DNA of 64,000 bases from Gemmatimonadaceae bacterium (lineage in GTDB: Bacteria > Gemmatimonadota > Gemmatimonadetes > Gemmatimonadales > Gemmatimonadaceae): assembly GCA_045803545.1 (NCBI GenBank), contig JBJMOW010000005.1:1056001-1120000 (forward strand). The letters are read 5' to 3'. Numbering within the stretch: the first letter of the stretch is position 1; every line of letters starts with the position of its first letter. The notes beneath the pieces were generated by a model. The model was not told where the DNA came from, did not search any database, and worked only from the letters and a program-made list of their open reading frames with translations. Both the position numbers and the translations under genes were made by a program. This document shows positions 29,545 through 36,823 of this stretch, piece after piece.

Positions 29545-30522
29545 TTATTCGCCCACTGGCACCGAAGGCGACGGAAGCATGGCGACGTTGACGTCGATTG
29601 GGAGCTTCACGCCGTTGTGAGTCTCGACGACGTCGAGGATACCTTGCCACACCTGCGCGAAAGAATGACCGACTTCGGTCGGATTCTTGTCGGGCGCAAA
29701 GCCGCGACCGCTCGCGATCCAGAATGGCGGATCCTTGGAAATGCCCGCCGCCGTGTAAACCTGCTTCACATCGCGGTAAATGAGATTCGCGTTGTAGCTG
29801 TGCGCGTAGTAACCGGGCGTAAAGCGGCCATCGGCAAGAACTCGCTGGGTCCACGCTTCGTAATAGCCGCGCATCGCCCCGGGCACGGTCTCCATGCGCT
29901 CGATGTCGAGGAAGATGACCGTGCCGTTTGCAAATCCTTCGGCTGCAGTCTTGGTTATCGCGTCGCTCGCGTCGGCGGTTCCGCGCGACGCGCTCACGAA
30001 CTGACTCGAGCAGGACGCGTTCGGCGTAGCACGCGGCGCGACGACGACTCTCACCGCCACGCGCTTATTGACGTAACGCACCACCCGCTTGCCACTTTTC
30101 AGCTTCACTGTCGTGCGGACTCTTTTCGTCACATACCGGGTGACAGTGACCTTCTGTCCCGGTATCCTGCCCCACGTTTGTTGGCCGACGTAGATCACCG
30201 CCATTCCCCAGCCCATATCTGTCAGAGTCTGGCGCTTTCCTTCCCAGGTGTCGTCGGTGTGACAAGGCGCAGATAAATAGTAGCCGACCCAGCTGTATGG
30301 CTTGTCGGCCGTGAGCCAGGCCTTCATCGCATCGTCACCCGGGTAAGCGAAAGTGTCGAAGCCGAGGTGGGGACCGGTATCGGACAGATCGTCAGCAATG
30401 GTTTCTGCGGCGGTCGACACCACTTCATCGATCGACGGCGCTTGAAGCGGAGTCGTACCCGTACTCACAATCAATCCTGCTGTGAGTAATGCGAGGATGG
30501 ACCGCCAGTCAATTTTTGGCAT
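29545..30522 (-). CDS. DUF1906/GH25-like TIM-barrel protein (putative peptidoglycan hydrolase), secreted
   Basis: GFDT..YPG, WVGYYL, IYVGQQ, G.ADA.DA, VIFLDIE, PGYY, FWIA, VWQ, IDVN. Confidence 0.8.
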   Translation of the reverse strand: MPKIDWRSILALLTAGLIVSTGTTPLQAPSIDEVVSTAAETIADDLSDTGPHLGFDTFAYPGDDAMKAWLTADKPYSWVGYYLSAPCHTDDTWEGKRQTLTDMGWGMAVIYVGQQTWGRIPGQKVTVTRYVTKRVRTTVKLKSGKRVVRYVNKRVAVRVVVAPRATPNASCSSQFVSASRGTADASDAITKTAAEGFANGTVIFLDIERMETVPGAMRGYYEAWTQRVLADGRFTPGYYAHSYNANLIYRDVKQVYTAAGISKDPPFWIASGRGFAPDKNPTEVGHSFAQVWQGILDVVETHNGVKLPIDVNVAMLPSPSVPVGE

Positions 30523-30774
30523 TGCTGTCCCCCAACTCGAATAGGCGGGATGGTGACACGCGTCGATTCCACGCGTCACGTGGTCGTTTCGGCTATACCC
30601 GCTCAATTGAGATCGTTCCGCTGACCTCTTCGCCTGTCCCTGGCAGGTGACAGATGAGCGCGGATATCGGTTTGTTAGCTCTTTAACTGGTGGGCATTCA
30701 ATAACTTAGCGTTTTGGCACGGCTGGCTTTGCTCATGCCAGATAAGGGGCCCAACCTCTTCTGTGGAGTCGCTT

Positions 30775-31944
30775 ATGCACCACCTGCGACGCGTTTTGGT
30801 AGGCCTCTCTGGAGTCCTATCGTATTTGGCAGTACCCGTTGCTCTTCACGCCCAAGCAGCCGGGGGTGTTGAGTTGTTCGGGGCCCTCGATAGCTCGGAC
30901 CCCGTAACCCGTACGCTCGGCGGATTATCGCTTAGTCTGGGAACGCCGTATGTCGGAATCCGAGGTAGCGGGGCGATCGGTCAGTCGACATTGACTCCGC
31001 AGTTCGGTGGGACGACCGCCGGGCCATCGGACGTCGTCTGGTCGACGAATGCCGACCTCCTGCTTGGTCCAATGAACGCCGGTCTTGGCGAGGGGTTCAT
31101 GCCCTACACTTTCATCGGTCTTGGGCTCGAGAGCGCGGCACAGCCAACCACTTTTACTGACGCGATCCGTACGTGGGGATATGGTGGCGGAATCCAGCTC
31201 GGCCTGGGCAGCCTCGTGTCGGTGAACGGTGAAGCGAGATTCAAACGCCTCGCTGCACCAGCGACCTACGCCGACTCGCAGTTCGTGCGCGGCGTCGAAT
31301 ACCGCGTCGGAATCGGTTTCCACTTTGGCGGCGGACGTTCGCGATCTTCGGTTTACTCGCGTCGCACCGTCGATCGACCGCCGAGTGCATCTCGTCCAAC
31401 ACGCGCACCATCGCGCACCAGGATCAACTGGCCAGTAGTCAACACTACCTCTGCGGCCGGCGCCGCTCGCAGAGTTGTGCCGACCGCGGAACAGTACATC
31501 GGCGTCCCTTACGTGTATGGTGGAACATCGCCCCGGAGCGGCTTCGATTGCTCGGGGTTTGTTCAGTATGTGTATGGGCAAAACGGGATCGACCTGCCGC
31601 GCACGTCGCGGCAGATGGCTGGGACCGGCGTTGCGGTGTCTACCCGGGCGCTCGCGGTTGGCGACCTCTTACTGTTTCAACAGGGCGGGCAGATCAGTCA
31701 CGTCGCGATATACGCGGGCAATGGACGTTTCATCCACTCTTCGTCCAGCGGACGCGGCGTGCGATATGACGACTTTAACACACGCCGCGGCAGCTGGTTC
31801 GCCGATCATCTGGTTGCCGCTAGACGGGTAACTGGTGACAGTCGCATATTTGGTAATACCTTCGGCAATGCACTGGCTGGCGGGTCCGTAATCGCGTTCG
31901 ACCACCTGGATCCCCCCGACAGCGCCCCTCCACCGTCCAAATGA
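30775..31944 (+). CDS. NlpC/P60 (C40) peptidase with N-terminal beta-barrel-like domain
   Basis: Signal peptide; strands PYTFIGLG, WGYGGGIQLG, YRVGIGFHFG; then IGVPYVYGG..GFDCSGFVQYVY, LPRTS, HVAIYAG, FIHS. Confidence 0.9.
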   Translation: MHHLRRVLVGLSGVLSYLAVPVALHAQAAGGVELFGALDSSDPVTRTLGGLSLSLGTPYVGIRGSGAIGQSTLTPQFGGTTAGPSDVVWSTNADLLLGPMNAGLGEGFMPYTFIGLGLESAAQPTTFTDAIRTWGYGGGIQLGLGSLVSVNGEARFKRLAAPATYADSQFVRGVEYRVGIGFHFGGGRSRSSVYSRRTVDRPPSASRPTRAPSRTRINWPVVNTTSAAGAARRVVPTAEQYIGVPYVYGGTSPRSGFDCSGFVQYVYGQNGIDLPRTSRQMAGTGVAVSTRALAVGDLLLFQQGGQISHVAIYAGNGRFIHSSSSGRGVRYDDFNTRRGSWFADHLVAARRVTGDSRIFGNTFGNALAGGSVIAFDHLDPPDSAPPPSK

Positions 31945-32174
31945 GCGACTCCAAGTCCGAACTCCGCCCATTCAGCGACCTTGAAAAGCCGCACCCGGTC
32001 GTCGCCGACTCAGTTGGCAACGCGGACGCGGGACCGATAGCGGTGCGGCTGGGCGATTTGTGGAGCGAGTTTATTCGCGTCGCTGACGAGGCGCGCGATC
32101 CCGCCGCACCCCGAAAGCGTGCGGCGGTTATCCCCCTCCTCGACCATATGAAGGGGATCCTGGAGTGGGATTAG
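31941..32174 (+). CDS. Small hypothetical protein
   Basis: ATGA overlap with the NlpC/P60 stop; fills the gap exactly to the convergent AraC gene. Confidence 0.6.
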   Translation: MSDSKSELRPFSDLEKPHPVVADSVGNADAGPIAVRLGDLWSEFIRVADEARDPAAPRKRAAVIPLLDHMKGILEWD

Positions 32175-33031
32175 CTCGGCTCTCGTCTCCGGCGTCGCCG
32201 GCGATGTGATCCATTGTGCCCCGGCGGGTGGCCAGGGTCGTCCTCCAGCGATCCGTCGTCACCCGCGCGGAGCCACTCCAGCACCGCAGCAATCCCGGCT
32301 TCGTCAGTAAGCCTGGTGCGGACACGCGCCGGGGTTTCCCCAAAGACGCTGACCCAGTGCTGCGAAAAGATGCGCGCCGTTTTGTATCCGAGCTTGATTG
32401 ACACGTCGAGAACCGAATAACCCGGATCGCGCAAATAGCCAAAGCCACGCAACACTTTCGCTGCGATTAGCAGGCGCTTCGGCGAGCCGAGCCGCGCCGA
32501 ATCGAGATTCCGGTAGACGCTGACAATGGCGATCCCCGCTTCCATCGCCAGGTCGAAAGCGCTCGTGTAGCGGTGTGGCTGCTCGAAAAGATTCTCGATA
32601 GTGACTGAAAGCTGCCTCGGGATCTGTGAGAGCCTTCCGCGAAGCGCCTCGATCACGTCGTGGGTCAGCGCATTTCCTTCCAGCCGTTCGACGCGCTCCT
32701 TGAACCCCTCGGGCTCGTCGTCGAAACGATGCAGCACGACCTCCTTCAATCCCAGCCGCCCCAGCTGAGCTACCGCACTGAATTGAGGTGCATGAAGGGT
32801 TACGTATGCGATCAGCGGTAGCGACGGATACCGCTTCAGCAGGCCAGCGACCGCGCCGACGTTCATGATCCCGTCAGCGGCCGGGTCGAGGATGACAACG
32901 CTGACGGGTTTGCGGCGGATAAACGACTCGAGCTCTTGCCAGTTGTCGGCAATCAAAAGCTCGGGCTCCTCGGCGAAAACGTGCTTGACGTGGGCGAGGA
33001 GTCGAGTCGGCAGGAACGCCGCAACGCTCAA
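32171..33031 (-). CDS. AraC-family transcriptional regulator with receiver-like N-terminal domain
   Basis: VSVVILDP / YPSLPLIAYV receiver-like fold; C-terminal LRDPGYSVLDVSIKLGY...FSQH..SVFGETP..VR AraC signature; TTG start. Confidence 0.85.
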   Translation of the reverse strand: MSVAAFLPTRLLAHVKHVFAEEPELLIADNWQELESFIRRKPVSVVILDPAADGIMNVGAVAGLLKRYPSLPLIAYVTLHAPQFSAVAQLGRLGLKEVVLHRFDDEPEGFKERVERLEGNALTHDVIEALRGRLSQIPRQLSVTIENLFEQPHRYTSAFDLAMEAGIAIVSVYRNLDSARLGSPKRLLIAAKVLRGFGYLRDPGYSVLDVSIKLGYKTARIFSQHWVSVFGETPARVRTRLTDEAGIAAVLEWLRAGDDGSLEDDPGHPPGHNGSHRRRRRRREPS

Positions 33032-33093
33032 TAGCGGATGGAGCGCATGATCCTAGGAAACTGGCGGCTAAACCTCTACAGCGGGAGGGGAGG

Positions 33094-33156
33094 TGATAAG
33101 AAAAGTGCTGTTTCTGATAGGAAACAAGCATTTTCTGATAAGAAAATGCCATTTCG
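33094..33156 (+). promoter_or_regulatory. Three tandem 21-bp direct repeats, candidate AraC-type operator
   Basis: TGATAAGAAAAGTGCTGTTTC / TGATAGGAAACAAGCATTTTC / TGATAAGAAAATGCCATTTCG; AT-rich in a GC-rich genome. Confidence 0.75.
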
Positions 33157-33227
33157 GCATCCGCCGTGGGTCATACGTTGAGCGTGGTCAGTACGCCAAC
33201 GAACCCATTCTTTTTCAGGAGCTTCAA

Positions 33228-33359
33228 ATGATCCGCCGTCGCCTTCTCATCGTCGCCACCGTCGTCGCTTCCGTCGTCCTCGCCGCTTGCTCAGACATGA
33301 CGGCTCCGACGAATGATGCATCCTGCCCGGTCAGCACCGGGTCGTCTACCTGTAAGTAA
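33228..33359 (+). CDS. 43-aa lipoprotein/peptide precursor
   Basis: AGGAG RBS; MIRRR + hydrophobic core + LAA|C lipobox; mature CSDMTAPTNDASCPVSTGSSTCK. Confidence 0.8.
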   Translation: MIRRRLLIVATVVASVVLAACSDMTAPTNDASCPVSTGSSTCK

Positions 33360-33374
33360 GCCCGGCGGCTAGAC

Positions 33375-34601
33375 TCAGCCGGTAGCGACAGCGGCCTTGC
33401 GCAGCTCCGAAATGTCGTGAGCTGCCGCAAGGACGTCGTGCGTCAGTGGTGCAAACGTGGGCTGCGTTCCCGCTTTGCGAGCCTTGGAGCGCAATGCGGA
33501 GAGGGCTTCGTCCGCCTTAAAAGAAACTGAGAAGATCTGATTATGATCCGCGCAACTCTTGGCCTCCGACAAAGCCTGCGCCGCAGTTTCGTATCGGTCG
33601 AATCGTTCGAGGCCCTCTCCAAGCATCAGCAGAAAATGCGATTTAAGCAAAGGCGGGAGAGGCTCACGTCTCAGTTCGCTCGTGTAGTCGTCGAACGCCG
33701 TCTCCTGACCATCAAACGAAGCCAATTCCATAAGGTTGATAATCGCCTGCCAGCGAACCCATTTAGTCTGCGCTGTCGCGGCCATCAAAAGGTAGGAATC
33801 ACGCGCGGCATCTCTCATACCTAGCTCGCCAAAAAACGCACCGAGGTCGCCCAGAATGCCTTCGCGATCTGCGTGTGCGCTCGAGAGGCGAAGCGCGTCG
33901 TGCGCCAGTTTTACGGCTTCAGCCGGATCACCGCGGCGATGCGCCAGCGCCGCGCGACTGTGCAATGCAATCGATTGCACTTCCCGAATTTCGAGGTCGG
34001 CGGCCTGCGTGAGCACGTCGTCGAGAATGCTCTGTGCCTGCGGCAGGTTTCCCTTCGCCATATAGGTGTTCGCGATACCGACCTGCACCGTCAGCACACC
34101 TTGGCGATCGCCCATGGTGTCAGCGATGTACGCGGCCTGCGAATACGCGCGCGCCGAGGTTTCCCAATCGCCATTGCGACGGGCAGCACCCCCTACAGCG
34201 ACATTCGCTTCAACGGCGAGCTTGGCGTTCTTCTCCGGACGCGAAATCTTCGCGACGGTCTGGTACACATCGGCTGCGAGCGACCAGTTCGCGTCGTAGT
34301 CGAGCGCCCGACCGTACCCGAGCAGTGATCGGCACACGATCTCGTCAATCGTGCCCCGCGCGATCGTCTCCTCGAGTACGGTGGTAAGGACGCCGCGAAT
34401 CGGATCCCCGGCGCTCACCTCTTCCACTGAACTGCGCACACTGTGCAGCTGTGCCCAGTTCGCCGGGTCGACCGACGCCGAATTGTCGGTATAGGAATCG
34501 ACCAGTCGCAGGACCGAGAGTCCGGCAAACACAGAACGCCAGGAGGCTGAATCCTCCCTTAGCGTACCAAGCGTATCGAAGAAGACTTGATGCCGGATCA
34601 T
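33375..34601 (-). CDS. Cytoplasmic TPR-repeat protein
   Basis: All-helical Ala-rich repeats (G..ARRNGDWE.SARAY..A, IAN.YMAKGNL..A..IL, LG.FF.ELG..DAA..SY); no signal peptide or TM. Confidence 0.8.
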   Translation of the reverse strand: MIRHQVFFDTLGTLREDSASWRSVFAGLSVLRLVDSYTDNSASVDPANWAQLHSVRSSVEEVSAGDPIRGVLTTVLEETIARGTIDEIVCRSLLGYGRALDYDANWSLAADVYQTVAKISRPEKNAKLAVEANVAVGGAARRNGDWETSARAYSQAAYIADTMGDRQGVLTVQVGIANTYMAKGNLPQAQSILDDVLTQAADLEIREVQSIALHSRAALAHRRGDPAEAVKLAHDALRLSSAHADREGILGDLGAFFGELGMRDAARDSYLLMAATAQTKWVRWQAIINLMELASFDGQETAFDDYTSELRREPLPPLLKSHFLLMLGEGLERFDRYETAAQALSEAKSCADHNQIFSVSFKADEALSALRSKARKAGTQPTFAPLTHDVLAAAHDISELRKAAVATG

Positions 34602-34652
34602 TGGGTAGGCTGGTTTTTTGGTGACTCAAAAATGCCACTGTGCACCCGTTTC

Positions 34653-34695
34653 CGAAATGCCTGTTTCGTATCACTGGAGGGGCGATTTCGTGTCA
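34653..34695 (-). promoter_or_regulatory. Two direct repeats of the same operator-like motif upstream of the TPR gene
   Basis: Minus strand TGACACGAAATCGCCCCTCCAG / TGATACGAAACAGGCATTTCG (22-bp period). Confidence 0.6.
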
Positions 34696-34716
34696 CTTAA
34701 GCCTCGCTACAGGCCC

Positions 34717-36372
34717 CTAAGTGCCCTTATTTGGGGGGCGGGATCCGGTCCCGTAAACGCGCTCCTCCATGGGGATATACCAGTCGGCCAGCGAAAACCA
34801 CCATGCATCCGGTCGCATCACATTCGTGTGGATGCGACGGTGAATCGCGATAATCTTGCGCGCTTCGTACAGCCAGATTGCGGGCGCGTCATCGTTGATG
34901 ATTGAGTACGCCCTGGAAAACAAGTCGCGCGCGTGTGTGGCATCTGCTTTGAGCGCGGTGTCGAGAGCGCTGTCGAAAGCAGCGTTCCTGTAATGACCGT
35001 AATTCACTCCATTGGAGCTGGCGCCTTCGCTGCTCCATGCGTCCCAGGTCCCGTCCGGACTAGCACTCATGGTCCAAACGTCCAGCGCTGCATCAAAGAC
35101 GCCCTTTCGCTCGCGCTCAGTCTCCGTGCTCGGATCGAGCTGTTCCAGATTCACGCGTATGCCCGCGCGTTTCAGCTGGTCCTGAAGAATTACTCCAGCG
35201 CGCATCCTGTTCAGGCTGCTGGTGGGAATGGCGATGTTGAATGCGAGCTGGCTGCCGTTCTTCGCTCGAATGCCAGCACTCCCGCGCAACCAGCCGAGCG
35301 AATCAAGCAGTGCGCTTGCGCGCGCCGAGTCGTAAGGAAGCTGAGAAAGTTTCGGATCAGTCGTGGGATAAACGCGCACCGTCGGACCCGCGGGCACAAT
35401 TGCGAAAGTATCGAGGATGTTTCTGGCCAACGTCTGGCGATTGAGCGCGAGCGCAATCGCGCGACGCATCTCTCGGTCGGCGAACAGGCGATGCGGCTTC
35501 GTCGTATCGTTCGGGTCCCGGAGATTGAAGCGCATGAACACGTAGTCCATCCCCGGCACTATCACCGCGCGCAGCGCAGGCTGATGCTCAAGTTCGGCGA
35601 GATCCTGAGGGCGTAGTCCGTCGAACACGTCCGCATCGCCGCGCAACAGTCGGGTGAGCGCGGCCGGGAAGTCGGGCACAATGCTCCAGATGACTCGGTC
35701 GACCCGTGCACGACCGCGGTAGTTGCCGGTGTCGGCAACCAATTCGATGCTTTCCCCCTTGTTCAGTTTGCGAAGACGAAACCGTCCGCTGCCGACCGAA
35801 GGTGGTGGCGATTCACGCAGTGACGATACGCGAATGTGCTCGAGTTGATGCGACGGCAGTATCAGCAACTGCGCAGCGGCGTCGAGGAACTGCGTCGGCA
35901 ATCGACGACGAAACCAGAATTTTGCAGTCAGCGAATCGACGATTGTGACAGAATCGATGTTGCCGAGCGACGACTCATACCGCGACGCGAGCTGGGGGTT
36001 TTTATTGAGAGCGAAGGTGAACGCGACGTCGCGCGCGGTGACGCGCTCCCCGTCATGCCAGCGCGCGCGCGGATTGATTTCAAAGGAGATCTGCATCGAG
36101 TCAGTCGACCAGCTCCACTTGTTTGCTAGCTGTGGTCGAAAGCCGCGATCGCTGAGGGTGTTGAGATCGGGCCCGACGTCCGCCAGATAATCGTAGATCT
36201 GCTCGGACACCTGCTTCGCCTGGGTGGTAAGCACCAGTGGAGGGAATAGCGTACCGGGATCCTGAACGGCGATGATGACAATGGTACCACCGGTCTCCGG
36301 TCGCTGTCGCGCCCCGTTCTCCGAGCATCCGGCGAGCGCAGCAATCATCGTGAACAGCGCGCGTTTCTTCAT
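34717..36372 (-). CDS. ABC transporter substrate-binding protein, family 5 (peptide/nickel), lipoprotein
   Basis: Lipobox LAG|C; PQLA.KW, WHDG..VTARDVAFTF, GSGRFRL, MRRAIALALNR, DAPAIWLY; ATG at 36372. Confidence 0.92.
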   Translation of the reverse strand: MKKRALFTMIAALAGCSENGARQRPETGGTIVIIAVQDPGTLFPPLVLTTQAKQVSEQIYDYLADVGPDLNTLSDRGFRPQLANKWSWSTDSMQISFEINPRARWHDGERVTARDVAFTFALNKNPQLASRYESSLGNIDSVTIVDSLTAKFWFRRRLPTQFLDAAAQLLILPSHQLEHIRVSSLRESPPPSVGSGRFRLRKLNKGESIELVADTGNYRGRARVDRVIWSIVPDFPAALTRLLRGDADVFDGLRPQDLAELEHQPALRAVIVPGMDYVFMRFNLRDPNDTTKPHRLFADREMRRAIALALNRQTLARNILDTFAIVPAGPTVRVYPTTDPKLSQLPYDSARASALLDSLGWLRGSAGIRAKNGSQLAFNIAIPTSSLNRMRAGVILQDQLKRAGIRVNLEQLDPSTETERERKGVFDAALDVWTMSASPDGTWDAWSSEGASSNGVNYGHYRNAAFDSALDTALKADATHARDLFSRAYSIINDDAPAIWLYEARKIIAIHRRIHTNVMRPDAWWFSLADWYIPMEERVYGTGSRPPNKGT

Positions 36373-36421
36373 GCGGGTGAAGGTACAAGCTCGGCGGGAC
36401 AGTGAAAGCACAGAATTGGCT

Positions 36422-36463
36422 TGATAGAAAACCGACATTTTGGGATATAGAAGTGACATTGAC
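36422..36463 (+). promoter_or_regulatory. Two 21-bp direct repeats of the same operator-like motif
   Basis: TGATAGAAAACCGACATTTTG / GGATATAGAAGTGACATTGAC in the divergent region between the SBP gene and the 36.5-kb ORF. Confidence 0.6.
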
Positions 36464-36496
36464 CTCCTTGCGTACGAGTGAAAACGTCCATGATAC

Positions 36497-36823
36497 ATGG
36501 GAGAAGCTGCCGCAAAGCGAGTCGACGCGATGCCTACCTTTCAGGTGGCGCACCTGCGACACGGGGATCAGGACATGGTCATCGTGCCGGTAGACCGCGC
36601 TTTTGGCAAGCGATCTACCACCGAGCAGGCGCGCATTCAAGAAGCGTTTCAGCGCAGCGCCAGTGCGGCAAACCTTCCGGGAGTGGTTGTCCTGGTGTGG
36701 GAGGATTCCGCCGGGAAGATGGCCCATCGCGCGCCGCCGACACTCAACGACTTCCTCAAGAGCATAGACATGGTCTATGTCGCAACGGCGCTCAATCGCA
36801 CACTGAGTTTGGAAACGCGCTGA
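36497..36823 (+). CDS. Small hypothetical protein (start may be 36530)
   Basis: Plausible alpha/beta sequence FQVAHLRHGDQDMVIVPVD..LPGVVVLVWED; followed by a GC hairpin. Confidence 0.7.
   Translation: MGEAAAKRVDAMPTFQVAHLRHGDQDMVIVPVDRAFGKRSTTEQARIQEAFQRSASAANLPGVVVLVWEDSAGKMAHRAPPTLNDFLKSIDMVYVATALNRTLSLETR

Follow-up and report, generated by a model that had tools for sequence, protein, structure and literature searches.

A candidate Rap/Phr-like peptide switch encoded by a conserved three-gene cassette of Gemmatimonadota

The window analyzed here, a 64-kb stretch of contig JBJMOW010000005.1 from a Gemmatimonadaceae bacterium, carries a cassette of three genes that encode a transcription activator with a degenerate receiver and an AraC-type DNA-binding domain (referred to as the AraC protein), a small lipoprotein propeptide and a tetratricopeptide repeat (TPR) protein. 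We propose that these genes form a peptide switch built like Rap/Phr plus its target, a reading to which we assign a probability of about 0.55. A preliminary description, made from the sequence alone, had taken the region for an RRNPP-like circuit. The tests of this idea that could be run, namely the linkage of the genes, the coding pattern of the peptide and the presence of an operator with activator geometry, failed to refute it, and the parts that had to be given up were the core role of a neighboring binding protein, the assignment of the third operator and the co-variation between the TPR protein and the peptide. Cell-to-cell signaling and an action of the TPR protein on the AraC protein are what we infer from this arrangement.

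Results

The TPR, peptide and AraC genes form a conserved unit

Open reading frames (ORFs), domain matches and hydropathy confirmed the four adjacent genes of the preliminary description, so that the AraC gene and the peptide gene are divergent, the gene of the soluble TPR protein converges on the peptide gene with the two stop codons 15 nt apart, and a family-5 binding lipoprotein is encoded next to it without an adjoining permease. The linkage was analyzed in loci obtained from three homology searches and 100 fetched stretches; 29 further profile matches and some of the listed ones are outside this sample, and once 16 duplicates, truncated TPRs and loci with less than 1,300 nt of downstream flank had been dropped, 142 TPR loci were kept. 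A convergent lipobox peptide was found in 131 of them, an AraC gene in 130 and both in 127, which bears out the expected linkage of TPR genes to lipobox ORFs and AraC genes. The peptide detector gave 47 false positives in 3000 random windows of the host genome, and one of the 11 loci scored without a peptide (L143) does carry one, whose tail is longer than the length limit of the detector. Three distant loci (L157, L160 and L164) retained the TPR and peptide genes, and no AraC gene was detected there.

With the TPR protein as a single query, matches were obtained in 37/61 related genomes, and a profile built from 26 TPR sequences matched in 133 of 301 genomes of the phylum (48/70 in the family of the window, 71/125 in a second family and 13/105 in others). 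The 15 closest loci were assigned to Gemmatimonadota, and the nine closest TPR look-alike clusters among the Atlas matches listed were mostly from the same phylum. No TPR relatives were found in plasmids or, with a single-protein query, in viral contigs. In genomes with several cassettes these were carried as whole units, and the TPR and AraC distances correlate at 0.74. An unpublished genome (G199) supplies one locus (L064), one tree row (L223) and one genome in two tallies, and no conclusion rests on it. Nine soil RNA runs contain 5-10% of the words of the locus, and in four of these runs parts of it (the whole peptide ORF in one) are covered by short contigs from the host or from relatives; DNA carry-over is possible, and this was not counted as expression. 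The linkage counts strongly support the view that the TPR, peptide and AraC genes are a conserved three-gene unit across two families.

A non-canonical receiver and an operator with activator geometry

The HTH_18 domain matched the AraC protein of the window at E 1e-6, under the Pfam cut-off, and the profile of its family matched both receiver domains and AraC helix-turn-helix (HTH) domains in the PDB (AdpA at E 2.4e-17). In structure comparison the C-terminal double HTH reached a template modeling (TM) score of 0.81 by target, with a root-mean-square deviation (rmsd) of 1.9, and Foldseek with the model of the protein, which begins at residue 7 and is without the first strand, found nothing at E <= 0.001. 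Of 118 receivers, 116 retain the acceptor Asp; L/V-P follows strand 1, R/G or H/A stands where the Lys would be, and the domain keeps the invariant non-canonical residues W, Y, DP and DD. Since the acidic pair and the Lys are missing, phosphorylation is unlikely and an input by a protein or a ligand is likely. A phosphorylated two-component system was considered and rejected because the receiver is without the metal-binding acidic pair and the Lys; no kinase gene is present in the cassette of the window. A search among AraC proteins of 463-2000 residues found none fused to something longer, which is weak evidence.

Three operator copies, at 33094, 33115 and 33136 (+), lie 21 bp apart 5′ of the peptide gene. 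Among 117 complete cassettes, 77 have a 21-22-bp repeat of the operator type (11-of-14 match) in the peptide promoter; control spacings gave counts of 2 and 0. A -10-like hexamer was located 38-39 nt from the last operator copy in 59 of 79 peptide promoters (loci L050 onward), and TAnnnT occurred at offsets 36-40 in 38/112 genus-type sites, against 1-5 in five control windows. This fixed offset places the last operator copy over the -35 position, which is the geometry of an activated promoter in AraC regulators. The half-site varies with the AraC clade (TGATA, TGTCGC, TGCCGC, TGGCAC or TGTCCC), and therefore the operator matrix of the window's genus recognized 5 of 94 later loci, the spacing alone being conserved across clades. 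The columns of the recognition helices co-changed with operator bases 3-6 more than other columns did (0.61 vs 0.50, p 5e-4, on a tree of TPR sequences), and after correction for variability the signal was seen in the second recognition helix only (27/31 base tests positive, best p 1.5e-4 of 62 tests). Because alignment columns are not independent, this co-change gives modest support. Judged from the sequences compared, it is strongly supported that the pseudo-receiver AraC of the cassette binds the 21-22-bp repeats and activates the peptide gene.

Selection acts on the mature part of the propeptide

The mature peptide of the window is CSDMTAPTNDASCPVSTGSSTCK, and Cys21 is the lipobox residue. 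Among 13 close relatives the mismatch at the three codon positions was 0.23/0.17/0.39, and single differences were 876 synonymous vs 409 non-synonymous, so that the peptide ORF is a real gene, and a conserved one as had been anticipated. A basic N-region, a hydrophobic core and the lipobox Cys are conserved among relatives, as read by a pattern of our own, and cleavage would be by signal peptidase II (SPII), not by signal peptidase I. The mature part measures 18-42 residues in 139 peptides, with two extra Cys in 99/139, none in 40/139 and never an odd number, which indicates a disulfide; in 79 of the 99 looped peptides the loop encloses 7 or 8 residues. Looped and linear peptides have in common an ending of the G-S-x-T/N or G-A/S-N-N type. 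In five members a tail motif of 6-8 residues is repeated head to tail, with three copies of HTIGSGN (L159), three of SGAQGSGT (L148), six of SGYNGSGT (L143) and doubled motifs (L086 and L161), as expected of a ligand that is released by proteolysis. The paired Cys and the tail repeats strongly support selection on the mature part of the propeptide. Tails differ between close species while the AraC protein stays ~80-90% identical.

The C-x-D-x-T-[GA]-P motif of the leader was ruled out as the signal, since it is common to 10 of 182 larger predicted lipoproteins of the genome; being unspecific, it is probably a sorting leader. The ten lipoproteins, in which the lipid Cys begins a C-x(2-5)-T-[GA]-P stretch, include G000 C2:1075809, C4:1032649 and C4:1346090; many lipoproteins of Gemmatimonadota start in this way, which is a possible phylum-specific sorting or surface-export signal.

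The TPR protein has the dimensions of a peptide receptor

The TPR protein has no signal peptide and no membrane helix (maximum hydropathy 0.73). TPR_12 matched over its cut-off, and no NCBIfam model did so. The structure model (predicted local distance difference test 95.6) is all-helical, with 20 helices that include the N-terminal helices 19-82, and has no DNA-binding domain. A fold search with this model gave LGN first (Z 23.1, rmsd 5.7, 292 aligned), and it also retrieved Rap of phage phi105 (Z 20.0, rmsd 5.7, 296 aligned), RapLS20 (Z 19.2, rmsd 8.8, 321 aligned, from model residue 22), domain III of MalT (Z 18.9) and NprR (Z 18.3). By sequence similarity Rap appeared at E 2.5e-4 and rank 60, below LGN and other eukaryotic TPRs. 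As the Rap-type scores are no better than those of generic TPRs, a closer kinship to RRNPPA than that of other TPR proteins is not indicated; in size and shape the modeled protein corresponds to an RRNPP receptor, and TPR superhelices of such size are established peptide binders. Among the 13 close relatives divergence was 0.34 for the TPR protein vs 0.17 for the AraC protein, and within the former it was highest in the C-terminal repeats, at helices 206-259 and 337-371.

In one record (P0074) an extracytoplasmic function (ECF) sigma factor with regions 2 and 4 is fused to a full-length member of the TPR family. This single case, possibly a gene-calling artefact, would connect these TPR proteins with the control of transcription.

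The adjacent binding protein is an accessory

The binding protein of the window matched SBP_bac_5 at E 1.8e-63 and has the lipobox LAGC and no permease beside its gene; no NCBIfam model matched over its cut-off, and a ligand is not assignable. The preliminary description had made this protein part of the core of the module. This was rejected, as a binding protein is adjacent in only 32 of 143 loci, all of family f1 (28 belong to the window's genus or its vicinity, and the remaining 4 to a single further genus). Of the four family-5 binding proteins that the host genome encodes, two adjoin permeases and the others do not, and homologues were found in 70/71 genomes of the family; 26 of 27 sampled from other genera sit beside permeases. 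The TPR-linked binding proteins fall into two clades, and a tree with a single clade was rejected (approximately unbiased test, p 0.028, for 28 of 47 rows under a simple model, the grouping having been chosen after the first tree was seen). Two separate clades suggest that TPR genes probably gained permease-less duplicates as neighbors on more than one occasion, and this repeated gain supports a role in peptide capture, as an accessory.

A second permease-less binding protein (L239:10618-19349; G000:C4 about 808600-817300) is encoded directly behind TPR, TPR-HD-GYP-like and sigma-54-activator-like genes, and the TPRs of this cluster are the closest relatives of the window TPR in the genome.

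Operator sites define a regulon in the window's genus

Genome-wide, 13 tandem operator pairs were detected, 11 of them outside the window, and none with each of five column-shuffled matrices. The matrix was derived from 45 distinct sites, and the training set included one copy of the window locus (L052), which inflates the scores of the window only. Hence the operator-like repeat noted in three promoter regions by the preliminary description is real and more frequent than by chance, but its third occurrence had most likely been given to the wrong gene. As an operator of the binding-protein gene it was rejected for its orientation; it is oriented to a 108-residue ORF as the other copies are to the peptide and TPR genes, and it is most likely the operator of that ORF, for which no known family was found in domain and family searches.

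The exact operator pattern was present in 23/57 genomes (23/39 in the window's genus and 0/18 outside), and the reversed pattern in none of the 57. It was found in 13 of 14 genomes with an AraC protein at least 66% identical and in 0/2 AraC-less genomes of 94-96% completeness; in five genomes (69-82% completeness) operator sites are present and the AraC gene was not found. The genes 3′ of the sites in the host genome include those of secreted lipoproteins, a subtilase and a hybrid histidine kinase and a gene that leads an HD-GYP gene, and island-like genes under operator sites encode an ABC-three-component system, an IrrE-like peptidase, DUF4236 and DUF3761. The targets that recur in other species are the 108-residue ORF, the hybrid kinase and the HD-GYP leader gene. 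Several operator sites face no same-strand gene, and our model leaves such sites unexplained.

Other occurrences of these elements were recorded. L188:69-5977 (G000:C5 about 74570-80480) encodes a pseudo-receiver AraC paralogue of 37% identity, without a TPR or peptide gene and with operator pairs on both promoter strands, and divergent from it is the gene of a 1071-residue subtilase, a candidate maturation protease. Two more distant receiver-like AraC proteins, 21-23% identical, were found in L004 and L005 (G000:C2). Operator sites head island-like genes in L183, L184, L185, L271 and L273, where an adenylosuccinate-synthetase-like gene beside the IrrE-like peptidase gene and Tle1-like and VasI-like genes also occur. 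In six genomes (L195:726 (+), L251, L259, L267, L270 and L278) an operator site lies just past the 3′ end of the cytochrome c maturation genes (ccmF/ccmH) and points back into them, and in L264 an operator pair with a good -10 box points, as judged by eye, into the 3′ end of an apparent tRNA-Pro gene. The sites at the ccmF/ccmH 3′ ends and in L264 are possible antisense promoters or small RNAs.

Layout of the locus

The features of the locus are collected in Table 1. Genes for an NlpC/P60 peptidase and an Rv2525c-like glycoside hydrolase (window 29545-31944) adjoin the AraC gene, and their linkage to the cassette is kept within the genus; a matrix scan found no operator site of at least 14 bits at either gene. 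An ATG six codons 5′ of the AraC start (window 33028-33048, -) opens a frame that in 10 of 13 close relatives ends in a TGA overlapping the TTG/GTG start and in the remaining 3 of 13 is in frame with AraC. It abuts a TAGGAT-like hexamer and may simply be promoter sequence.

Table 1. Coordinates of the cassette, its operators and the adjacent genes in the window
Feature	Position	Strand	Remarks
Pseudo-receiver/AraC transcription activator, 286 aa	32171..33031	-	TTG start inferred
Operator, three 21-bp direct repeats (TGATAnRAAA..G.CATTTy)	33094..33155	+	The -35 region of the peptide gene is overlapped by the last copy
-10 hexamer TACGTT	33174..33179	+	Starts 38 nt after the point where the last operator copy begins
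Lipoprotein propeptide, 43 aa	33228..33359	+	Signal peptide, lipobox Cys21, C-x-D-x-T-A-P leader, Cys33-Cys42 loop around PVSTGSST
Cytoplasmic all-helical TPR protein, 408 aa, 20 helices, no HTH	33375..34601	-	Putative peptide receptor and AraC modulator
Operator pair, 22-bp spacing, TPR promoter	34654..34695	-	Feature of the window's genus
Permease-less family-5 substrate-binding lipoprotein, 551 aa	34717..36372	-	Accessory at the level of the genus; its paralogue is the binding protein linked to a permease
Operator pair facing the 108-aa ORF	36422..36462 (about)	+	Most likely the operator of that ORF
108-aa protein, no known family	36497..36823	+	Regulon member; in 6/151 genomes of the order

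Discussion

The proposed peptide switch

In the model that we propose, the AraC protein would bind the repeats that overlap the -35 position and activate the peptide gene and, in the window's genus, also the TPR gene, the 108-residue ORF and a dispersed regulon, a step that is strongly supported. The propeptide, as read from its sequence, would be exported by Sec as a lipoprotein, and most members would close a disulfide loop around a motif of ~7 residues, x-x-x-G-S-x-T/N. The C-terminal piece would then be cut off by an extracytoplasmic protease and taken up through a family-5 binding protein and a peptide permease whose genes lie elsewhere, and the loop would be reduced in the cytoplasm. Binding of the peptide in the TPR groove would change the contact of the TPR protein with the AraC protein; most likely the peptide relieves a Rap-like inhibition of AraC by the TPR protein, and a peptide-dependent co-activation would fit equally well. 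The induction of both the peptide and the TPR gene by AraC in the window's genus fits an anti-activator that is relieved by the peptide. The outcome would be positive feedback, which is the wiring of quorum sensing, and the adjacent binding protein would be a lineage-level duplicate that probably improves peptide capture. For the Gemmatimonadales as a whole, the chances seem about even that this amounts to a Rap/Phr-like pheromone that works across two membranes, in which a strain-specific peptide of ~7 residues, cut from a lipid-tethered propeptide, is imported by neighbors and acts via the TPR protein on a non-phosphorylated receiver-AraC that controls secreted and horizontally acquired defense-like genes, binding proteins having been recruited repeatedly.

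Several results weigh against this model. The main one is that the co-variation of the TPR protein with the peptide tail, which had been put forward as a check, was not detected beyond ancestry, either by distances or by tree. The partial correlation of tail and TPR distances given AraC was 0.11, below those of tail with AraC (0.16) and of signal peptide with TPR (0.21), and the tree test gave p 0.03 for one tail state out of eight, with nothing significant after correction. A complex prediction of the TPR protein with peptide residues 14-43 returned 'no answer' (score 0.02, mark 0.32) and was not used as evidence either way. The repeat is present in the TPR promoter of only 20/117 loci; the recognition helices gave p 0.41 with operator bases 3-4 alone, and the first of them showed no clear co-change. 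The Rap-type fold matches do not rise above generic TPRs such as LGN, no binding protein is adjacent at 111/143 loci, a maturation protease was not identified, and a lipid-anchored peptide released in the periplasm may mostly return to the same cell.

In the strongest rival, an unlikely one in our judgment, the same parts are cell-autonomous: the peptide would be cut and recaptured in the periplasm of its producer, and the circuit would be a bistable switch, a timer or a reporter of the state of the envelope (lipoprotein traffic, periplasmic proteolysis and disulfide formation), not a message between cells. That the peptide is a lipoprotein in a diderm, that a binding-protein duplicate stands beside the cassette in some lineages, that no lock-and-key co-variation of tail and TPR protein is detectable and that the regulon is rich in envelope and secreted proteins all suit it. 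The variation of tails between close species with ~80-90% identical AraC proteins, however, suits strain-specific codes better than a housekeeping cue, and the C-x-D-x-T-[GA]-P leader may direct sorting to the surface.

Distinctly less probable is that the peptide is a signal and the TPR protein is not its receptor, so that the peptide acts on the AraC pseudo-receiver or on an unlinked membrane sensor and the TPR protein modulates AraC on some other input. The tail distance tracks AraC at least as well as it tracks the TPR protein, and the invariant residues of the receiver could form a ligand site; yet the TPR and peptide genes are direct neighbors in 131/142 loci, L157, L160 and L164 keep the two together without a detected AraC gene, and TPR superhelices of this size are established binders of peptides. 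We consider it very improbable that the small lipoprotein is instead an output (a membrane plug, an exclusion factor or an antimicrobial) controlled by AraC and TPR proteins acting as an activator/anti-activator pair. The peptide gene is indeed the one most directly under the operator, and the lipoprotein weakly resembles the entry-exclusion lipoprotein TrbK (E 0.009, under the cut-off and in the signal-peptide region), but an 8-residue tail repeated exactly in up to six tandem copies suits a processed ligand and not a structural protein, and no relative was found in plasmids or, with a single-protein query, in viral contigs. Least probable of all is a ligand derived from the signal peptide of the lipoprotein, as in the sex pheromones of Enterococcus, with the mature part as a by-product: the correlation of signal peptide with TPR protein given AraC exceeds that of the tail, but selection on the mature part is evident from its paired Cys and tail repeats, and the signal-peptide positions showed no co-change with the TPR groove helices on the tree.

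If the proposed peptide switch is correct, peptide signaling would extend to diderms, in 133/301 sampled genomes of a top-ten soil phylum, and how a lipoprotein-derived peptide crosses the outer membrane would become a new question. It would also offer a handle on the social behavior of Gemmatimonadota and perhaps on their poor cultivability. The proposal is directly testable, because the operator, the promoter geometry, the regulon and a short candidate ligand are defined.

Comparison with known systems

No description of the cassette was found in the literature searched, most subscription papers being out of reach, which agrees with the preliminary description, to which no published account of the architecture was known. 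Partial likenesses can be drawn to several systems. The pheromones of agr-type two-component systems are cyclized by a disulfide or thiolactone and have variable ring residues. The cassette shares with them a small cyclic peptide with variable ring residues, but no membrane histidine kinase or AgrB-type enzyme is linked to it in the window, and 40/139 members are linear. AraC/XylS activators (araBAD I1-I2, RhaS/RhaR) use 21-bp direct-repeat half-sites at class II promoters; likewise, the cassette has a double HTH and tandem half-sites about two helical turns apart that overlap the -35 position, whereas its N-terminal domain is a degenerate receiver and not a sugar-binding cupin, and its input is probably a protein partner. 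NprR-NprX, PlcR-PapR, AimR-AimP and ComR-XIP resemble the cassette in that a TPR receptor (a putative one in the cassette) is paired with an adjacent small exported peptide, and the PlcR and ComR systems have positive feedback on peptide transcription. Their receptors, in contrast, carry an HTH of their own, while in the cassette DNA binding resides on the separate AraC protein, and their fold scores (Z 16-18) are not above those of generic TPRs.

PMC9765709 and PMC10075063 describe cytoplasmic receptors of peptide pheromones in Firmicutes and in the mobile elements of these bacteria, and the former places RRNPPA genes in Firmicutes genera and gives SPII cleavage as predicted for 211 of 2,734 RRNPPA propeptides. 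Four of the five RRNPP features named in PMC10075063 were found in the cassette (a propeptide of 10-100 residues, a receptor of 250-500 residues, TPRs and direct neighborhood); for the fifth, Sec secretion and maturation, the conserved signal features were read by our own pattern and the cleavage would be of the SPII type.

The closest parallel is Rap-Phr/ComA (RapF; RapLS20-PhrLS20; phage Rap105/Rap3T). The cassette differs from it in its host, a diderm phylum, in its propeptide, which is always a lipoprotein and usually disulfide-looped, in its peptide gene, which is convergent with the putative receptor gene, and in its target, which would be a co-encoded pseudo-receiver AraC and not phosphorylated ComA or Spo0F; the sequence similarity of Rap to the cassette TPR is generic only. 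Both have in common a cytoplasmic TPR protein of ~400 residues without an HTH beside a small propeptide, whose export by Sec is predicted for the cassette, a separate response-regulator-like target, putative in the cassette (RapF inhibits ComA, PMC3246441), tandem pheromones (duplicated Phr pheromones, PMC11343458) and a fold that compares at Z 18-20. While membership of RRNPPA is not established, the cassette appears, by analogy, to work like Rap/Phr.

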